This document shows, piece after piece, positions 2,776-7,359 of a stretch of DNA of 25,957 nucleotides (position 1 is the first letter of the stretch; each line of letters opens with the position of its first letter). Made by a program: the position numbers and the translations under genes. The notes beneath the pieces were generated by a model that was given only the letters and a program-made list of their open reading frames with translations, ran no database searches and was not told where the DNA came from. Source of the stretch: Candidatus Heimdallarchaeota archaeon. GTDB taxonomy: Archaea > Asgardarchaeota > Heimdallarchaeia > Heimdallarchaeales > Heimdallarchaeaceae. The DNA lies in assembly GCA_030668875.1 (NCBI GenBank), contig DAOVER010000041.1, forward strand, positions 1 through 25,957, read 5' to 3'.

Positions 2776-3930
2776 GTGGCTTCGTCTACATCCACAAAAA
2801 ATTCAATAATAAACAAAACTGATCAGACAGATTTCTTGATGGAATGTGTCGATATTGCAATAGGGGAAGAAACAGGTTCTCCCTACATGATTAAGTTAGC
2901 AAAGGAAAGGGGAATAAAGAAAGGAGACGTCAACAATTGGTTTGACTTAGCTGAACACTTTGGTTCCACTGACCCGAACATTTTCCGAGAACACTCGGTA
3001 AACTATACTACCACCAAATGGGCTCATCAATGGTATGCTCGTACACCCGGTGCAGAACTGCAAGTAGCGGAAACCGGAGGCACAACTGGAGCGCCGAAAA
3101 AAAATATTTTGGCGGCTAATACCACTAGAATAGATTTTGACGCTATGGATTATTTTGACTTAGAAACGGATACTTTTAATATTCTTACTAAGCTCGCTAT
3201 GACCCAATTCGAAGATTTTGGTATACCTCTACATCTTAACTATCTCGCAACTGTTCCTACAGGACCTCATACCATAGGTAAATGGACTATCAAATCGTTC
3301 GAACGTGATATAGCAAAATCCATCTTCATGATCGACATGGATCCTCGTTTCGTTAAGAAAGCAGCAATGATTGATCCCAAAATTATGGGTATGTATTTGC
3401 AACACATGCAAGACCAGACTCAAGCACTTGTTAAGCAAGAATTCCCATTCATACAGGGCCTCTTTACTACCGGTGTCTTGATTGAGAAATCCTTCCCAAT
3501 GATTCAAGCTTTGAAAGAAAAAGGTAATCTTCAAGCAATTGTTCATGGTGGAACTCCTTTATCAAATGAGACGCTTAAGATTCTCACTGAAGATATGGGC
3601 TTACCAGTAATTGGTTTCTACGGACAAAGCTTGTTCGGTACTGCTTTCCAGAGTCCTGATTTTGATGGTCATCACATAGATTATTACAGTCATCCTAGAA
3701 TGAACATGTTTCTAGTCTCCGATGAAAGTGACATTAAGAGTAGAATCAATTATGGTGAGATGGGTACCGTTGTTTCCCAACGTATCAGCCCTGAAACTGT
3801 TATTCCTGCCTTAGTTCAAAATGGTGACTTAGCTACTTTAATCAAACCTAAAGGTAAGTTCGACTACGCTGATGGTGCTCGTGATCCTCACAGAGATCTT
3901 TCTCAGGGCCAACAGATGGGAGTCTACTAA
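2776..3930 (+). CDS. ANL-superfamily adenylate-forming enzyme, EhpF/PaaK-like
   Basis: P-loop ETGGTTGAPK (variant of TSGTTGxPK); GFYGQSLFG resembles the YGxxE-type motif; short (384 aa); SD-like GGAGTTGA before the GTG. Confidence 0.7.
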   Translation: MASSTSTKNSIINKTDQTDFLMECVDIAIGEETGSPYMIKLAKERGIKKGDVNNWFDLAEHFGSTDPNIFREHSVNYTTTKWAHQWYARTPGAELQVAETGGTTGAPKKNILAANTTRIDFDAMDYFDLETDTFNILTKLAMTQFEDFGIPLHLNYLATVPTGPHTIGKWTIKSFERDIAKSIFMIDMDPRFVKKAAMIDPKIMGMYLQHMQDQTQALVKQEFPFIQGLFTTGVLIEKSFPMIQALKEKGNLQAIVHGGTPLSNETLKILTEDMGLPVIGFYGQSLFGTAFQSPDFDGHHIDYYSHPRMNMFLVSDESDIKSRINYGEMGTVVSQRISPETVIPALVQNGDLATLIKPKGKFDYADGARDPHRDLSQGQQMGVY

Positions 3931-3942
3931 ATTATACATTTT

Positions 3943-3971
3943 TTTCAACCATGGGAGGTTGATTTTTCTTT
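3943..3971 (+). repeat. Hairpin repeat copy 1 (native, 14 nt after the ANL stop): TCAACC-ATGGGA-GGTTGA flanked by T tracts; possible terminator
   Basis: Stem arms at 3945-3950 and 3957-3962; the 29-mer differs by 1 nt from 8455-8483. Confidence 0.9.
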
Positions 3972-4046
3972 TCCTACATTTCTTCTTTGATATCGATTAA
4001 TAATCTTTAATATGATTAAGACCTACACTTAATTAGTGAGATTGTC

Positions 4047-4235
4047 ATGACATCTTCATTAGAACAAGAAATTCAAAAAATAAAAGACAGATTAGAAGAG
4101 CTTTTTACTATCTCAAATACTATTCTTCATTTGCTTATCTCTGAAGAGGAAGCTTTTTCTGATGAAATATCAGCAATTAGAAACAAAGAAGACGCTGTTA
4201 ACGAGGAAATCTTATTTAAGGAGCTAACAAGTTGA
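4047..4235 (+). CDS. Archaeal RelB-like antitoxin
   Basis: 62 aa, acidic, N-terminal coiled-coil pattern; its TGA overlaps the TTG start of a RelE-like frame (4-nt overlap). Confidence 0.65.
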   Translation: MTSSLEQEIQKIKDRLEELFTISNTILHLLISEEEAFSDEISAIRNKEDAVNEEILFKELTS

Positions 4236-4498
4236 CTTTTGAAATTTCAATAAAAAAGTCTGCTTTAAAATTCATTTAAGGTTTAGATAAATCTCAGAAA
4301 GCATTAATCCACGATTTTATTCTAGTCATCAAGGAACATGCCGTTCCAAGCAAGAAATATGACATCGTTAAACTTAAATCCTTCACAAATACTTTTCGGG
4401 TTCATTTTGAAAATATCAGAGTTGTTTATACCGTTTCATGGAACAACAGTAAGATTCTTATTCAGTTCATTGGATGGAGGAAAGACGCTTACAAATAA
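4232..4498 (+). pseudogene. relE: RelE/ParE-family toxin interrupted by an in-frame TAA at 4277-4279
   Basis: Manual translation MTFEISIKKSALKFI*GLDKSQKALIHDFILVIKEHAVPSKKYDIVKLKSFTNTFRVHFENIRVVYTVSWNNSKILIQFIGWRKDAYK* follows the Pyrococcus-type RelE pattern (VP..K.D..KL, R.....R..Y.V.W, R..AYK). Confidence 0.82.
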
Positions 4499-4527
4499 CC
4501 ATGATCTTGATTGTCTATCATTTATAA

Positions 4528-4944
4528 TCATTCAATGAAGGTTAATTCTATTTTTTTATCTTTTCCTTTAAGTAACACATCAAATGATTCCAGAAACTTC
4601 CTTCCAATTAGAGTTTCAGTTAAAGATCGATGAGTATCAATTGTTGTCACGATTGAAACATCTATACCCTTTACAGTTACAGAACCACTTGCTGTTCTTA
4701 AAACAAATTTCTCTCCTGTAATTGTTTCAGCTTTAGCAAATAGATTTTCACTATATTCAAAAGCGGATAAATTTAGGTCATCATATAGCTTTACTGGAAC
4801 AACAATTTCCCCATCATATCCAGTATCTATCATTGCACTACATTCTATTGACTTTGAACCAAGAGGATCGCTTATTAATAAATCAACATATGGAGCTAGT
4901 TCACTTGAACTTGATGACGGTTTGTAATCAAAGATATTCTTCAA
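4528..4944 (-). CDS. Clan AA (retropepsin-like) aspartic protease, AF_0612-like
   Basis: Catalytic AMIDTGYDG motif and C-terminal LIGRKFL motif; single lobe, 138 aa. Confidence 0.85.
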   Translation of the reverse strand: MKNIFDYKPSSSSSELAPYVDLLISDPLGSKSIECSAMIDTGYDGEIVVPVKLYDDLNLSAFEYSENLFAKAETITGEKFVLRTASGSVTVKGIDVSIVTTIDTHRSLTETLIGRKFLESFDVLLKGKDKKIELTFIE

Positions 4945-5324
4945 GATTCTTTCCTCCTGAAACCAAATTCTGTTCTTCGACCTTCTTTAAGAATTGGTGA
5001 TACTATATTATACTTATTTTCAAGCTTGTTGAGTTTAACAGCTTTTATCGCTTCGTCTCGGTTTTCAAAAATTCCAATTATTAAACCTTCAGAAATAACT
5101 ATCCATTTGTTTTCATATTCTTTAATTAAATTTGGTAGCGTTCGTCTATACGTTGCATTATTCTGTTGTCTCATCAAATCCTTCTCACCTTTCTCTTGCT
5201 CTTCAGCTAACCATTTAATCATTGCTTCAGCAAAAGCTTCATTTATGCGCAAACCCTTTAGAGCTGCTTTTGACTTGAATTTTGCATAAAGCTCTTTGTC
5301 AACTCCTTTTATGAGTACAGACAT
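4941..5324 (-). CDS. RHH-like N-terminus fused to a DUF5678-like domain; antitoxin-like partner of the protease
   Basis: N-terminal VLIKGVDKELYAKFKSKA (RHH-like); C-terminal YENKWIVISEGLIIGIFENRDEAIKA; 4-nt overlap with the protease gene. Confidence 0.6.
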   Translation of the reverse strand: MSVLIKGVDKELYAKFKSKAALKGLRINEAFAEAMIKWLAEEQEKGEKDLMRQQNNATYRRTLPNLIKEYENKWIVISEGLIIGIFENRDEAIKAVKLNKLENKYNIVSPILKEGRRTEFGFRRKES

Positions 5325-5335
5325 ATTTTTTCACT

Positions 5336-5347
5336 TAAGTATACTTA
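5336..5347. promoter_or_regulatory. Palindromic candidate operator TAAGTATACTTA
   Basis: Perfect 12-bp palindrome 12 nt upstream of the RHH-DUF5678 start, adjacent to a TATA-like element. Confidence 0.45.
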
Positions 5348-5407
5348 TATAACTGAGTTAATAAAGTTAACCTAATATAGGATTAAAAATTGTAACAGTC
5401 TCCAATA

Positions 5408-5440
5408 TCTATTAATTTTTTTCAACTTGGGAGGTTGATT
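5408..5440 (+). repeat. Hairpin repeat copy 2 with a short stop-codon remnant (TCTATTAA-T-tract-TCAACTTGGGAGGTTGATT)
   Basis: TCAAC at 5422-5426 and GTTGA at 5434-5438; TCTATTAA resembles the gene end TCTACTAA. Confidence 0.75.
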
Positions 5441-5512
5441 ATTTCGGTCCTATTGATTTTAAAACTAATAGAAACTATTATGTATGATTATATATATATT
5501 CTCTTGAGAAAC

Positions 5513-5953
5513 ATGACTATATCTAACCGAAAGGAGGTTCTCTCAAAGTTAGTTGAATCTTTAAAGAATAACTTATCTCCACTATTAAAAGAATATAATG
5601 CATCCTTTGCATATTTTAGTGGTTCCTGGGTTAGAGGTCAACAAAGTGCTCTAAGCGACATAGATATTTTTGTTTCTTTACCTTCTCTTAGTACAATATC
5701 CCCTAAAGAAACACTAATTCTGTTGAGTGATTTCTCCAGAAAAGCGAGTGAGGTTACAAAGCAAGATAAACTCGAAATCACAATTCTAGAAAGAGTACCA
5801 CTCCACGTACAATTTCAGGCAATTAAGGATGGTATATTGCTTTATGAGAAAACTAAGGATGTTCGAACAAACTTCTTAGAAAATCTCTTAAAATACTATT
5901 ATGATCATAAAATTTGGCTTCAAAACTATCTTAGTCAAACAGTAGAAGGGTGA
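5513..5953 (+). CDS. mntA: Minimal nucleotidyltransferase antitoxin (MNT)
   Basis: GS...DxD motif (FSGSWVRGQQSALSDIDIFV). Start moved to ATG 5513 because the track's TTG at 5435 lies inside the hairpin repeat. Confidence 0.88.
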   Translation: MTISNRKEVLSKLVESLKNNLSPLLKEYNASFAYFSGSWVRGQQSALSDIDIFVSLPSLSTISPKETLILLSDFSRKASEVTKQDKLEITILERVPLHVQFQAIKDGILLYEKTKDVRTNFLENLLKYYYDHKIWLQNYLSQTVEG

Positions 5954-6382
5954 ATGCATATGGCTATTAATTCGGATTTCCTTAAAGAAAAATTTGCTTA
6001 TAGCAAAAAATACATTGAAAGACTAAGAAGTATTATTGTAATCTCTGAAAAAATATTTCTAGATGATTTTTCTCTTCAACTAGAGTCTGAAAGAATTTTT
6101 GAAGTTCTTTCCCAATTAATGCTTGATATCTGCACGCATATTATTGCTCATTCAAGCGAAACTCCTCCTTCAACATATTCCGATTGCATGAGGAAACTAG
6201 TAGATGTTGGGGTTATTAATGAAGAAGAGTCAATAAACTTCATAAAGATAGTCAAAATGAGAAACTTATTGATCCATCAATATGGAACTATAGATCAAGG
6301 AATGCTTTTTACTGCTTTAAAGATGTTAGAAACTGATTTCTTACAGTTCAAAAACAGTGTATTATCTTGGATTGAAAAATAA
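5954..6382 (+). CDS. hepT: HEPN (DUF86/HepT) RNase toxin
   Basis: RX4HXY motif RNLLIHQY; immediately downstream of the MNT gene. The start may be ATG 5960. Confidence 0.9.
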   Translation: MHMAINSDFLKEKFAYSKKYIERLRSIIVISEKIFLDDFSLQLESERIFEVLSQLMLDICTHIIAHSSETPPSTYSDCMRKLVDVGVINEEESINFIKIVKMRNLLIHQYGTIDQGMLFTALKMLETDFLQFKNSVLSWIEK

Positions 6383-6435
6383 TCTTAATTTTTATATTGG
6401 GAAATAGTTATTATTGAAATAGAAGTTGCTATTTC

Positions 6436-6550
6436 AAAAGTATACTCTACTGTGCTAAAGGTGCTTGTGATCCTCATAGAGATCTATCACAGGGTCAGCA
6501 AATGGGAGTCTACTAAACTATTCATTTTTTCAACCTAAGGGAGGTTGATT
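6436..6550 (+). repeat. Displaced copy of the ANL gene 3' end plus hairpin (copy 3, longest)
   Basis: 6436-6516 aligns without gaps to 3850-3930 and reads KSILYCAKGACDPHRDLSQGQQMGVY*; hairpin TCAACC at 6530-6535 and GGTTGA at 6543-6548. Confidence 0.95.
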
Positions 6551-6597
6551 TCACTTTATTCTCTTTCATAGATTGTCGATAGTTTTATTTACTTTCG

Positions 6598-6615
6598 TGT
6601 ATACTATAGTATACA
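6598..6615. promoter_or_regulatory. Perfect 18-bp palindrome TGTATACTATAGTATACA, candidate antitoxin operator
   Basis: Self-complementary; its last base is the A of the vapB ATG at 6615. Confidence 0.6.
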
Positions 6616-6827
6616 TGAAAACTATTACTATTTCGGATGAGATTTACGAGAAGCTTATTCAGATCAAAGGAAATAGAAGTTTTAACCAATTATTAGATGA
6701 TTTGTTATCTAAGGATGTTGAGAAACGGATAGATTTACTCATTGAAGCTGCAAGTAAAACTGGTTATGAAAAGGAACTTGAAGAGATTTCTAAACAAATC
6801 AGGACAAATTTTAAGGTGCGAACATGA
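6615..6827 (+). CDS. vapB: Archaeal VapB antitoxin (MKTITIS..Y..L...K...SF type)
   Basis: MKTITISDEIYEKLIQIKGNRSFNQLLDDLL pattern; start moved to ATG 6615; ATGA overlap with vapC. Confidence 0.85.
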   Translation: MKTITISDEIYEKLIQIKGNRSFNQLLDDLLSKDVEKRIDLLIEAASKTGYEKELEEISKQIRTNFKVRT

Positions 6828-7231
6828 AAATACTCTTAGACACATCTTTTTTAATTGAGCTTAAAAAGGGCAATAAAAATGCACTAAAAATCTTAATAGA
6901 TAGAAAGTCAAAAACTCAAGATATACTTGTAAGTTCTTTGACTATCTATGAATTACTTGCTGGAGCTCACTACATCTTAAAGAAGCATGATGATATCAAA
7001 GAACTTAAGCAAATTCAAAAAATGCTACAGAATCTTACAGAAGCTATAATTGACATTAAAGTGATCTGGAAAGCAGCTGAATTAAAAGCGGATTTGCTTG
7101 TTTCTGGTGTTTCTGTTCCTGACATAGATATCATAATTGCTTGTTCAGAAGAAGCAGAAATCTTAACATATGACAAAGATTTCAAACCTCTGAACAATTT
7201 TGGATTCAAAATTACGGTTTTAAATAAGTAA
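6824..7231 (+). CDS. vapC: PIN-domain toxin VapC
   Basis: ILLDTSFLIE, TIYELLAG, PDIDIIIA and LTYDKDF motifs. Confidence 0.92.
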   Translation: MKILLDTSFLIELKKGNKNALKILIDRKSKTQDILVSSLTIYELLAGAHYILKKHDDIKELKQIQKMLQNLTEAIIDIKVIWKAAELKADLLVSGVSVPDIDIIIACSEEAEILTYDKDFKPLNNFGFKITVLNK

Positions 7232-7239
7232 AAACAAAT

Positions 7240-7313
7240 AGAGATCTTTCCCAAGGACAACAAATGGTATTCTATTAGTTCTTTCATTTTTTTCAACCTA
7301 AGGGGTGTTGATT
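7240..7313 (+). repeat. Displaced copy of the ANL gene 3' end plus hairpin (copy 4)
   Basis: 7240-7278 reads RDLSQGQQMVFY* against the gene's RDLSQGQQMGVY*; the 14-nt stop-to-hairpin spacer matches the native copy; TCAAC at 7293-7297 and GTTGA at 7307-7311. Confidence 0.9.
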
Positions 7314-7359
7314 TTCCTTTTCTTTGTGAAATCTTCAAAACATCAATCACCAGTAGAAA

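Follow-up and report, generated by a model that had tools for sequence, protein, structure and literature searches.

Displaced copies of a gene's 3' end among toxin–antitoxin cassettes of a Heimdallarchaeota archaeon as probable relics of earlier working gene ends

Introduction

The closest textbook case of a gene end replaced by incoming DNA is the insertion of e14 and phage 21 into icd of Escherichia coli, in which the gene is reported to receive an alternative end from the element, its original end being left as the icdC fragment (Hill, Gray and Brody 1989, PMC210168, via PMC13626634). A related arrangement is described here for Candidatus Heimdallarchaeota archaeon (assembly GCA_030668875.1, genome G000 in the following), on contig C66 (DAOVER010000041.1), the entire 25,957 bp of which constitute the analysed window. 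Downstream of a gene for an adenylating enzyme, termed gene X, two displaced copies of the gene's own 3' end, the tails T1 and T2, are interspersed with toxin–antitoxin cassettes, in addition to the live tail T0 of the gene itself. With a probability of roughly 0.6, these orphan fragments were once functional 3' ends, either of gene X itself or of orthologous alleles, and have been displaced by homology-driven cassette insertion.

The likeness to icd lies in an insert in the 3' end of a housekeeping-type gene, a nearly unchanged protein, a dead C-terminal fragment beyond the insert and two ends that differ mainly by synonymous changes; e14, however, is a prophage of 15 kb that brings its own integrase and uses a single fixed att core. 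The array described here, in contrast, consists of toxin–antitoxin cassettes of 0.7-1.5 kb without a recombinase, which are four deep, shuffled between species and associated with tails of variable length.

Archaeal integrated elements target the 3'-distal parts of protein genes, form tandem arrays and carry integrases or casposases (PMC6563490). The archaeal host, the gene 3' end as target, the flanking direct repeats and the re-use of the site for arrays are features in common, but the sites of these elements are short att sites or target site duplications (13 bp in one example, PMC6563490), whereas the repeats here extend over 35-113 nucleotides (nt), are diverged and allele-like and are accompanied by no integrase or casposase gene. 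Insertion with long target duplication, on the other hand, has been described for restriction-modification complexes with near-identical repeats (e.g. 44/46 and 417/423; Nobusato et al. 2000; Furuta et al. 2010, PMC2853133), in a screen that no archaeal case passed (PMC2853133). Selfish addictive pairs without a mobility gene and long, variable, locus-unique direct repeats, often over a gene 3' end, are found in both situations; in the window, inserts without a mobility gene are flanked by direct repeats of >30 bp that are single-copy in an empty-site genome, the empty site being an ABC exporter gene in the related genomes G016 and G002. The repeats of restriction-modification complexes are, however, read as target copies, whereas the present ones display orthologue-like divergence and group with live tails of other species.

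Displacement of C-terminal ends with accumulation of orphan tips is known from Rhs and contact-dependent inhibition (CDI) systems (e.g. Poole et al. 2011, PMC3150448), in which, as here, a new end with linked cargo is recombined via the conserved gene body and old ends pile up downstream. There, the displaced ends are different toxin tips (with cognate immunity genes) and tip diversity is the point, whereas here every end encodes the same peptide and the toxin-antitoxin cargo is unrelated to the anchor gene. Integrons and clusters of attC sites lacking integron-integrases (CALINs), archaeal integrons included (Ghaly et al. 2022, PMC9668308), resemble the locus in their small, mostly toxin-antitoxin cassettes separated by a conserved folded repeat, in an order that is reshuffled between relatives and in new cassettes that appear to enter beside a fixed anchor. 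In contrast to integrons, the locus has no IntI, the repeat is a simple hairpin of 19-21 nt instead of an attC of 57-141 nt with R''/L''/L'/R' boxes, cassettes occur in both orientations and the coding end of the anchor is duplicated. Aloposons (PMC8813620), considered equally, are tRNA-targeting elements with giant genes and unrelated. No published description of this arrangement in Asgard archaea was found in the literature, and we regard the locus as a variant of known gene-end displacement, as in e14/icd and the Rhs tips, that represents a recurrent, under-described archaeal pattern of integrase-free cassette insertion.

Live and displaced tails of gene X

The window belongs to a 3.23-Mb metagenome-assembled genome with 34% G+C and a completeness of 92%, and the sequencing runs that contain the locus are marine-sediment metagenomes. 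The direct repeats consist of the 3' end of gene X, the proximal copy completing the gene, and are recovered by BLASTN between 3860-3971 and 6446-6557 (E=7e-25) and between 3892-3973 and 7240-7322 (E=2e-12); their copy-to-copy identity amounts to 79-83% over repeat lengths of 35-113 nt, with synonymous-biased differences. Coordinates of tails, hairpin copies (hp0-hp4) and cassettes are collected in Table 1.

Over the last 16 codons, T1 deviates from T0 at 6 of 48 nt (CAC/CAT, CTT/CTA, TCT/TCA, GGC/GGT, CAA/CAG, CAG/CAA), and all six differences are synonymous, as stated in the preliminary description, and in third position, with the peptide DPHRDLSQGQQMGVY* encoded in both. The bias is evident directly from the alignment and is significant by the third-position test that had been proposed (P=0.0014 for 6/6 at third positions); synonymous changes account for 20% of the possible single changes in these 15 codons, and under neutral change the probability of 6/6 synonymous differences is 6e-5, or 3e-4 with a transition bias of kappa=4. 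T2, which starts 8 nt past the VapC stop, encodes RDLSQGQQM followed by V F Y and a stop, so that apart from two decayed codons the peptide and the position of the stop are kept (TAA>TAG), again as first described. Equally, neither T1 nor T2 possesses a start codon: a TGA at 6415 closes the frame of T1 upstream, and its sole in-frame ATG/GTG/TTG is the M four codons ahead of the stop.

T1 is composed of two zones, of which the left one carries a significantly higher non-synonymous load than the last 16 codons (Fisher p=0.0004), and the contrast implies that the zones differ in history. Most simply, T1 would be a hybrid of an older, long-untranslated left part and a recently live right part, which is allowed by a homology-driven as well as by a site-specific model of insertion. 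The left ends of the gene X tails vary, being located 12/13, 17, 23 or 27 codons ahead of the gene end; many tail copies begin near AGAGATCT, which common descent from a single event may explain.

Table 1. Positions of gene X, its tails, the hairpin copies, the cassettes and a second displaced gene end in the 25,957-bp window
Feature	Position	Strand	Description
Gene X	2776..3930	+	384-aa EhpF-like ANL-superfamily adenylating enzyme; anchor gene
T0	3883..3930	+	Live tail; last 15 codons + TAA
T1 zone 2	6436..6468	+	11 codons corresponding by homology to codons -27 to -17 of gene X; 7 non-synonymous
T1 zone 1	6469..6516	+	Displaced tail; 6 synonymous differences, peptide unchanged
T2	7240..7278	+	Displaced tail; G>V, V>F, TAG stop; tail type in common with G002, by vertical inheritance
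hp0	3939..3975	+	6-bp hairpin TCAACC/GGTTGA with T-run and T-rich tract, directly after the stop
hp1	5416..5447	+	No recognisable tail
Decayed sixth hairpin	6409..6432	+	Closes cassette B, right after the HepT stop; T1 begins immediately behind
hp2	6525..6557	+	3' untranslated region of the type of displaced tail d2 of G002
hp3	7287..7320	+	Weakened stem (GGGGTGTTGA)
hp4	8452..8483	+	Last copy, 94% identical to hp0; end of array
Cassette A	3964..5415		Two units: A1, small + strand open reading frames to ~4509; A2, RHH-like/aspartic-protease pair, 4528-5324, - strand
Cassette B	5513..6382	+	MNT nucleotidyltransferase + HepT (HEPN) toxin-antitoxin pair; Pfam PF18765, PF01934
Cassette C	6615..7231	+	VapB/VapC (PIN); Pfam PF02697, PF01850
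Cassette D	7392..8398	+	Antitoxin + MazF/PemK-like toxin, 7392-7926; 140-aa membrane open reading frame, 7976-8398; Pfam
ABC exporter gene, displaced tail	10269..10349	-	Last 27 codons; live tail 11051-11131
Inserted surface-protein gene	10400-10969		189 aa, signal peptide, C-terminal anchor; between the ABC exporter tails

Divergence and phylogeny of the tails

Compared gene-wide with the two nearest species, gene X is divergent at 0.30-0.34 of third positions and at 0.03-0.04 of first and second positions, and T0 and T1 differ at 6 of 16 third positions (0.375) and at 0 of 32 first and second positions. As this third-position divergence equals the interspecies level, T1 resembles the end of an orthologue and not a decaying local copy. 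T2 deviates from the live tail of the sister genome G002 at 3 of 39 nt, all within the two decayed codons, and from the live tail of its own genome at 8 of 39 nt, and it has the TAG stop and the 3' untranslated region (UTR) in common with the G002 tail. Furthermore, the entire block of T2, hairpin and cassette D in the window aligns end to end with live tail, hairpin and D in G002 at 84% identity, with 85% identity for the gene body, and the 3' UTR type of T1 reappears on the displaced tail d2 of G002.

For a wider comparison, the orthologous locus was retrieved from 15 genomes of the genus, and a maximum-likelihood tree, short and partly unresolved, was built from 27 live and displaced tails of 16 genomes. 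In this tree, the construction of which the preliminary description had proposed, the three tails of G000 are seen not to be mutual closest relatives; a constraint to one clade is rejected by the approximately unbiased (AU) test (p=0.0007), as is a sister relationship of T0 and T2 (p=0.0012). These AU tests were run after the free tree had been seen, the tested grouping being the one implied by the tandem-duplication alternative. The initial claim that the tails had been working ends of the gene or of orthologous alleles, later replaced, is thus supported by the synonymous bias, the tree and the interspecies-level divergence, and its dismissal of a fresh tandem duplication decaying neutrally holds on account of the significant bias and the rejected three-tail clade. 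Grouping with the alleles of different species, in the preliminary description a sign of capture from other lineages, is displayed by T2 with the live tail of G002; for T1, a sister relationship with T0 is compatible with the data (AU p=0.19), so that no donor lineage emerged. T2 is judged to be older than T1. A simple gradient of decay with distance from the gene is not seen in every relative, the nearest displaced tail of G023 being badly decayed.

Homologous exchange is also recorded in the gene body. Among G000, G002 and G016, the phylogenetic signal along gene X forms a mosaic (p=0.0075, chi-square test), with nt 241-480 resembling G002 and nt 601-960 resembling G016, and such switching of blocks indicates that exchange between lineages occurs in the anchor gene itself. 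The recombination breakpoint of T0 was not placeable within gene X, the three closest genomes being approximately equidistant and the last 30 nt holding 7 informative sites.

Gene X has no match in Pfam and none in NCBIfam. A phmmer comparison with the PDB retrieves EhpF (E=1.7e-14), and the neighbours of gene X in the Atlas are AMP-binding/LuxE-like; from its sequence, the gene is predicted to be an ordinary enzyme gene and not a recombinase. Orthologues were found in 16 of the 23 genomes that represent the genus, and in 0 of 16 genomes from other families of the order.

The hairpin element

Each tail is followed by an element composed of a T-run, a hairpin with a 6-7 bp stem, TCAACC(N5-7)GGTTGA, and a T-rich tract. 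The 3.2-Mb genome contains five copies of the hairpin, all at this locus and none elsewhere, and the decayed sixth copy aligns with a degenerate hairpin behind HepT in G002 and G009. Of the 24 exact matches across 24 genomes of the genus, 21 are located on gene-X contigs, and in nearly all relatives a hairpin is found directly 3' of gene X, many having several copies. With its flanking T-runs the hairpin would terminate archaeal transcription of the preceding cassette.

Among the 2.9 million viral contigs of IMG/VR the motif has 0 matches, and thus no free element bearing an attP site was found. A scan of metagenomes gave 13 matches, three of which (L041, L044, L049) are of this locus type; the remaining ones were set aside as GC-rich chance matches or as soil sequence with another loop and without gene X. 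In metagenome contigs with the array-type loop, the hairpin occurs only beside gene X or array cassettes. Five low-GC soil contigs (L043, L046, L047, L048, L052) carry an identical TTTCAACCATCGGAGGTTGG hairpin without gene X or an array cassette.

Folding of 100-111 nt around each repeat yields only a 6-7 bp stem with a loop of 5-6 nt, with Z-scores of -2.0 to +1.2; no larger attC-like fold was found, and no Rfam family is present in the window. The first and the last hairpin (3944-3962 and 8457-8474) possess a loop variant, CCATGGGAGG / CCATTGGAGG, that is absent from the inner copies and from the relatives, as expected if the block between them had entered by one crossover in a single resident hairpin.

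The cassette array and its distribution

The hairpin copies delimit four intervals with the complete modules A, B, C and D, and the open reading frames between the repeats all encode toxin-antitoxin or small unknown proteins, with no integrase among them. Independent Logan contigs cover 6064-7490 (B-T1-C-T2-D) and 3657-5512 (X-T0-A-B) with 0-2 differences, and the arrangement is therefore not a product of the assembly of this genome.

At least nine other genomes of the genus carry the same cassette families, differently ordered. In G001 and G023, the first cassette behind gene X is C; cassette D occupies the first place in G002, the third place in G023 and G007 and the fourth in G000; and the MNT/HepT cassette occupies other array positions in G002 and G009. 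The protease of A2 belongs to clan AA by Pfam/NCBIfam, and A2 is the first cassette in G007. In metagenomes, a 4.8-kb contig (X5 record 20) runs from tail-hairpin through D and B to A, and X6 contigs have the orders C-T2-hairpin-A2 and A1-tail-hairpin. The shuffling of cassettes at the hairpins is thereby shown, and rearranged units in contigs from unrelated sediment studies indicate that the cassettes are discrete units exchanged at the hairpin. The X6 contigs split cassette A, A1 (to 4509) being followed by tail and hairpin and A2 (from 4524) being preceded by C-T2-hairpin, which suggests that a hairpin between A1 and A2 has been lost in G000.

Displaced tails are present in G001, G002 (two), G004, G007 (two), G012, G016 and G023 (two). 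Behind cassette C, a tail of the host's own type follows in G001 and G023, as expected if insertion displaces the resident tail. Cassette D is followed by a tail of the 'SQG' class in G002, G023 and G007, and the live tails of G023 and G007 are 'TGN'; an SQG tail behind D in TGN genomes implies that cassettes can also take a tail along on their 3' side. As tails travel with cassettes, an orphan tail would have been a working end in some lineage, not necessarily that of G000.

Several observations extend beyond the array. A second version of MNT/HepT (~89.5% identical at 5499-6043) is found in the runs X3 and X4 at deeper coverage than that of the window, which suggests that the cassette circulates in another co-occurring genome or locus. 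Short joints in the same runs (3926>6521, 6512>3939; sides of 27-31 nt), probably live tails of related strains, were not used as evidence of excision. Two VapBC pairs outside the array (1147-1786 and 9568-10183, both on the - strand) lack recognisable hairpins in the window, and their orthologues are hairpin-bounded cassettes in G007, G009, G012, G017 and G023. A weak hairpin-like motif (193-213) precedes an F420-type luciferase-like oxidoreductase gene (271-1125), the orthologue of which is located in G004 between two hairpins inside the gene-X array, so that metabolic genes can apparently also be cassettes.

Recombinases and comparable loci

No match to the tyrosine recombinase family PF00589 is present in G000; across the 24 genomes of the genus such matches are sporadic, none being on a gene-X contig, and none was found in the multi-cassette genomes G002, G007, G009 and G012. 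A Y1 (IS200/IS605) transposase was equally not found in G000. Five small serine recombinases are encoded in G000, on other contigs.

A comparable scar is displayed by the ABC exporter gene of the same window, where a surface-protein gene is inserted between live and displaced tail (Table 1). The tail pair differs by 7 synonymous and 6 non-synonymous codons; the displaced tail ends in the ancestral Asp, as in G016, G002 and G004, and the live copy has Asn. The site is uninterrupted, without insert, in G016 and G002, and no hairpin motif is present at this locus.

A scan of the whole genome identified approximately 13 other genes whose last 14-40 codons recur as an orphan copy at a distance of 0.6-7.5 kb downstream, among them loci on contigs C10 (12158>14619; 15850>14496), C15 (12375>13099), C47 (19455>13894, 12202), C61 (11648>9921, 6513), C92 (4103>6139) and C95 (84971>82742). 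The differences at these loci are again biased towards third positions, their distribution by codon position being, for example, [1,1,13], [3,0,11], [1,2,11] and [0,0,2]. The cargo consists mostly of surface or unknown proteins and not of toxin-antitoxin pairs; several of the repeated segments stop exactly at the stop codon, and the repeats of the 13 loci have no k-mer or motif in common beyond shuffled controls.

Proposed history of the locus

The last 12-27 codons with stop, 3' UTR and hairpin are the only sequence common to genomes with differing downstream content and thus would act as the recombination substrate. DNA of another lineage, consisting of a gene end, a hairpin and a new cassette, would recombine in, whereby the incoming end becomes the live tail and the resident tail with its hairpin would persist beyond the insert, intact but no longer translated. 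Repeated insertion would stack cassettes and tails, and recombination between hairpin copies may reshuffle, delete and export cassettes, at times with a passenger tail. Differences between tails are expected to be synonymous because they would have arisen while each tail was translated in its own lineage, and non-synonymous decay would start only after displacement. In the simplest history, the ancestor in common with G002 would have possessed X-T2-hairpin-D with T2 as the live tail, followed by the arrival of C with T1 and, subsequently, of A and B with T0.

The absence of a recombinase at the locus, the unrelated and motif-free scars elsewhere in the genome, the variable ends of the tails and the mosaic structure of gene X favour homology-driven insertion of allelic DNA, either of RadA type or by homology-facilitated illegitimate joining, over a dedicated recombinase. 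Possible routes are a single crossover of Campbell type with a circularised fragment and, alternatively, an illegitimate join combined with homologous crossover in the gene. Toxin-antitoxin cassettes would presumably accumulate through being hard to lose.

Alternative explanations

Several observations weigh against displacement by homology-driven insertion. In G001 and G007 the displaced tails are closest to the live tails of their own genome, which fits conspecific donors but also local duplication. The available homology, ~35-85 nt, is short for homologous recombination to be efficient, T1 with its two zones demands an extra event that creates a hybrid tail, and no recombination intermediate was seen among the data, which consist of assembled contigs only. 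The five serine recombinases together with the genome completeness of 92% leave room for an enzyme acting in trans. Furthermore, the right half of the hairpin (GGGAGGTTGA) has a pairwise identity of 0.82 versus 0.52 for third codon positions and is conserved like first and second positions, the hairpin persists in tail-less copies, and cassette boundaries are located inside the hairpin loop, as for a core-type recombination site. Conservation of the right half and persistence without a tail suggest that the hairpin could be a site recognised by a protein and not mere homology.

These latter features lead to the alternative that has to be considered most seriously, although it appears rather doubtful, namely that an att-like core is formed by the hairpin, alone or together with part of the tail, and that a recombinase encoded elsewhere uses this core to move circular cassettes in trans, in an integron-like manner or as in cis-mobilizable elements (CIME-like). 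The tails would then be attL and attR arms, the new gene end coming from the element arm and the displaced one being the host arm. The palindromic arms of 6-7 bp around a loop of 5-7 nt in which cassette homology begins and ends, the right arm that is strongly conserved across species and in tail-less copies and the serine recombinase genes would fit such a core, and the zones of T1 could then be a never-translated element arm joined to a once-translated host arm; in addition, insertion into the 3'-distal parts of protein genes and the formation of tandem arrays are both on record for archaeal integrative elements (PMC6563490). Against this stand the lack of a tyrosine recombinase in G000 and on any gene-X contig of the 24 genomes, extending to multi-cassette genomes (G002, G007, G009, G012) without any PF00589 match, a loop of variable length, a left arm that is missing in G019 and degenerate in several copies, and left tail boundaries that do not appear to be fixed. 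Equally, the scar recurs at other loci of G000, where the repeats are unrelated and have no motif in common, and the hairpin is absent from viral and plasmid-like contigs.

A bolder proposal, which we put forward only tentatively and consider improbable as it stands, sees the GGGAGGTTGA hairpin as the dedicated site of an integrase-free, integron-like cassette-capture platform in Heimdallarchaeia, where a recombinogenic end would be made at the hairpin by a host factor, for instance a structure-specific nuclease or the processing of replication forks, and cassettes would enter at the gene tail and pass between species.

Local tandem duplication of the gene end followed by decay, with the synonymous appearance caused by chance or by gene conversion from the live copy, might account for the displaced tails of G001 and G007 that are closest to the live tail of the same genome, and mosaic tails, such as d2 of G002, are suggestive of conversion between copies. 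For G000, however, this explanation is very unlikely, as 6/6 differences are synonymous (P<=1e-3), monophyly of the three tails is rejected and T2 has the stop codon and UTR of another species' live tail; moreover, conversion would erase differences and not render them synonymous. To a similarly small degree it can be envisaged that selection still maintains the orphan tails, be it as small peptides, as part of the 3' UTR or terminator of a cassette or as regulatory RNA. The peptide of T1 is intact and termination of the transcription of the preceding cassette by hairpin and T-runs can be predicted, but neither frame has a start codon, T2 and many tails of relatives are decayed or frameshifted, Rfam gives no match and selection at the RNA or DNA level would not spare third codon positions alone. 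Finally, a chimera of the metagenome assembly, in which strain variants with different first cassettes are chained through the common hairpin, might be conceived for a genome from a mixed sediment community with minor alternative joints at tails in X3 and X4 (sides of 27-31 nt), but is highly improbable given that T1 and T2 lack their left part and border on cassette ends instead of gene X, that both B-T1-C-T2-D and X-T0-A-B are covered by independent Logan contigs at 0-2 differences and that the same architecture occurs in independently assembled genomes of other studies.

Significance

If the orphan tails are displaced working ends, each represents a frozen allele, and stacks of tails reveal in which order insertions took place and offer hints of the donors. 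The finding would gain weight if the hairpin proved to be a dedicated recombination site, in which case the orphan tails would constitute a datable record of successive captures. For annotation, short in-frame copies of gene ends are to be considered as relics and not as genes, and such insertions would escape tools for the identification of genomic islands that depend on integrases and on att repeats being identical.

Asgard archaea are close to the origin of eukaryotes and have been poorly explored for gene flow. The orphan tails provide direct evidence, at the level of the sequence, of the way in which accessory genes, in this case addictive toxin-antitoxin pairs, enter these genomes and move between them without integrases or transposases, and the same scar at approximately 13 further genes of G000 suggests that this might be a general route of gene acquisition.

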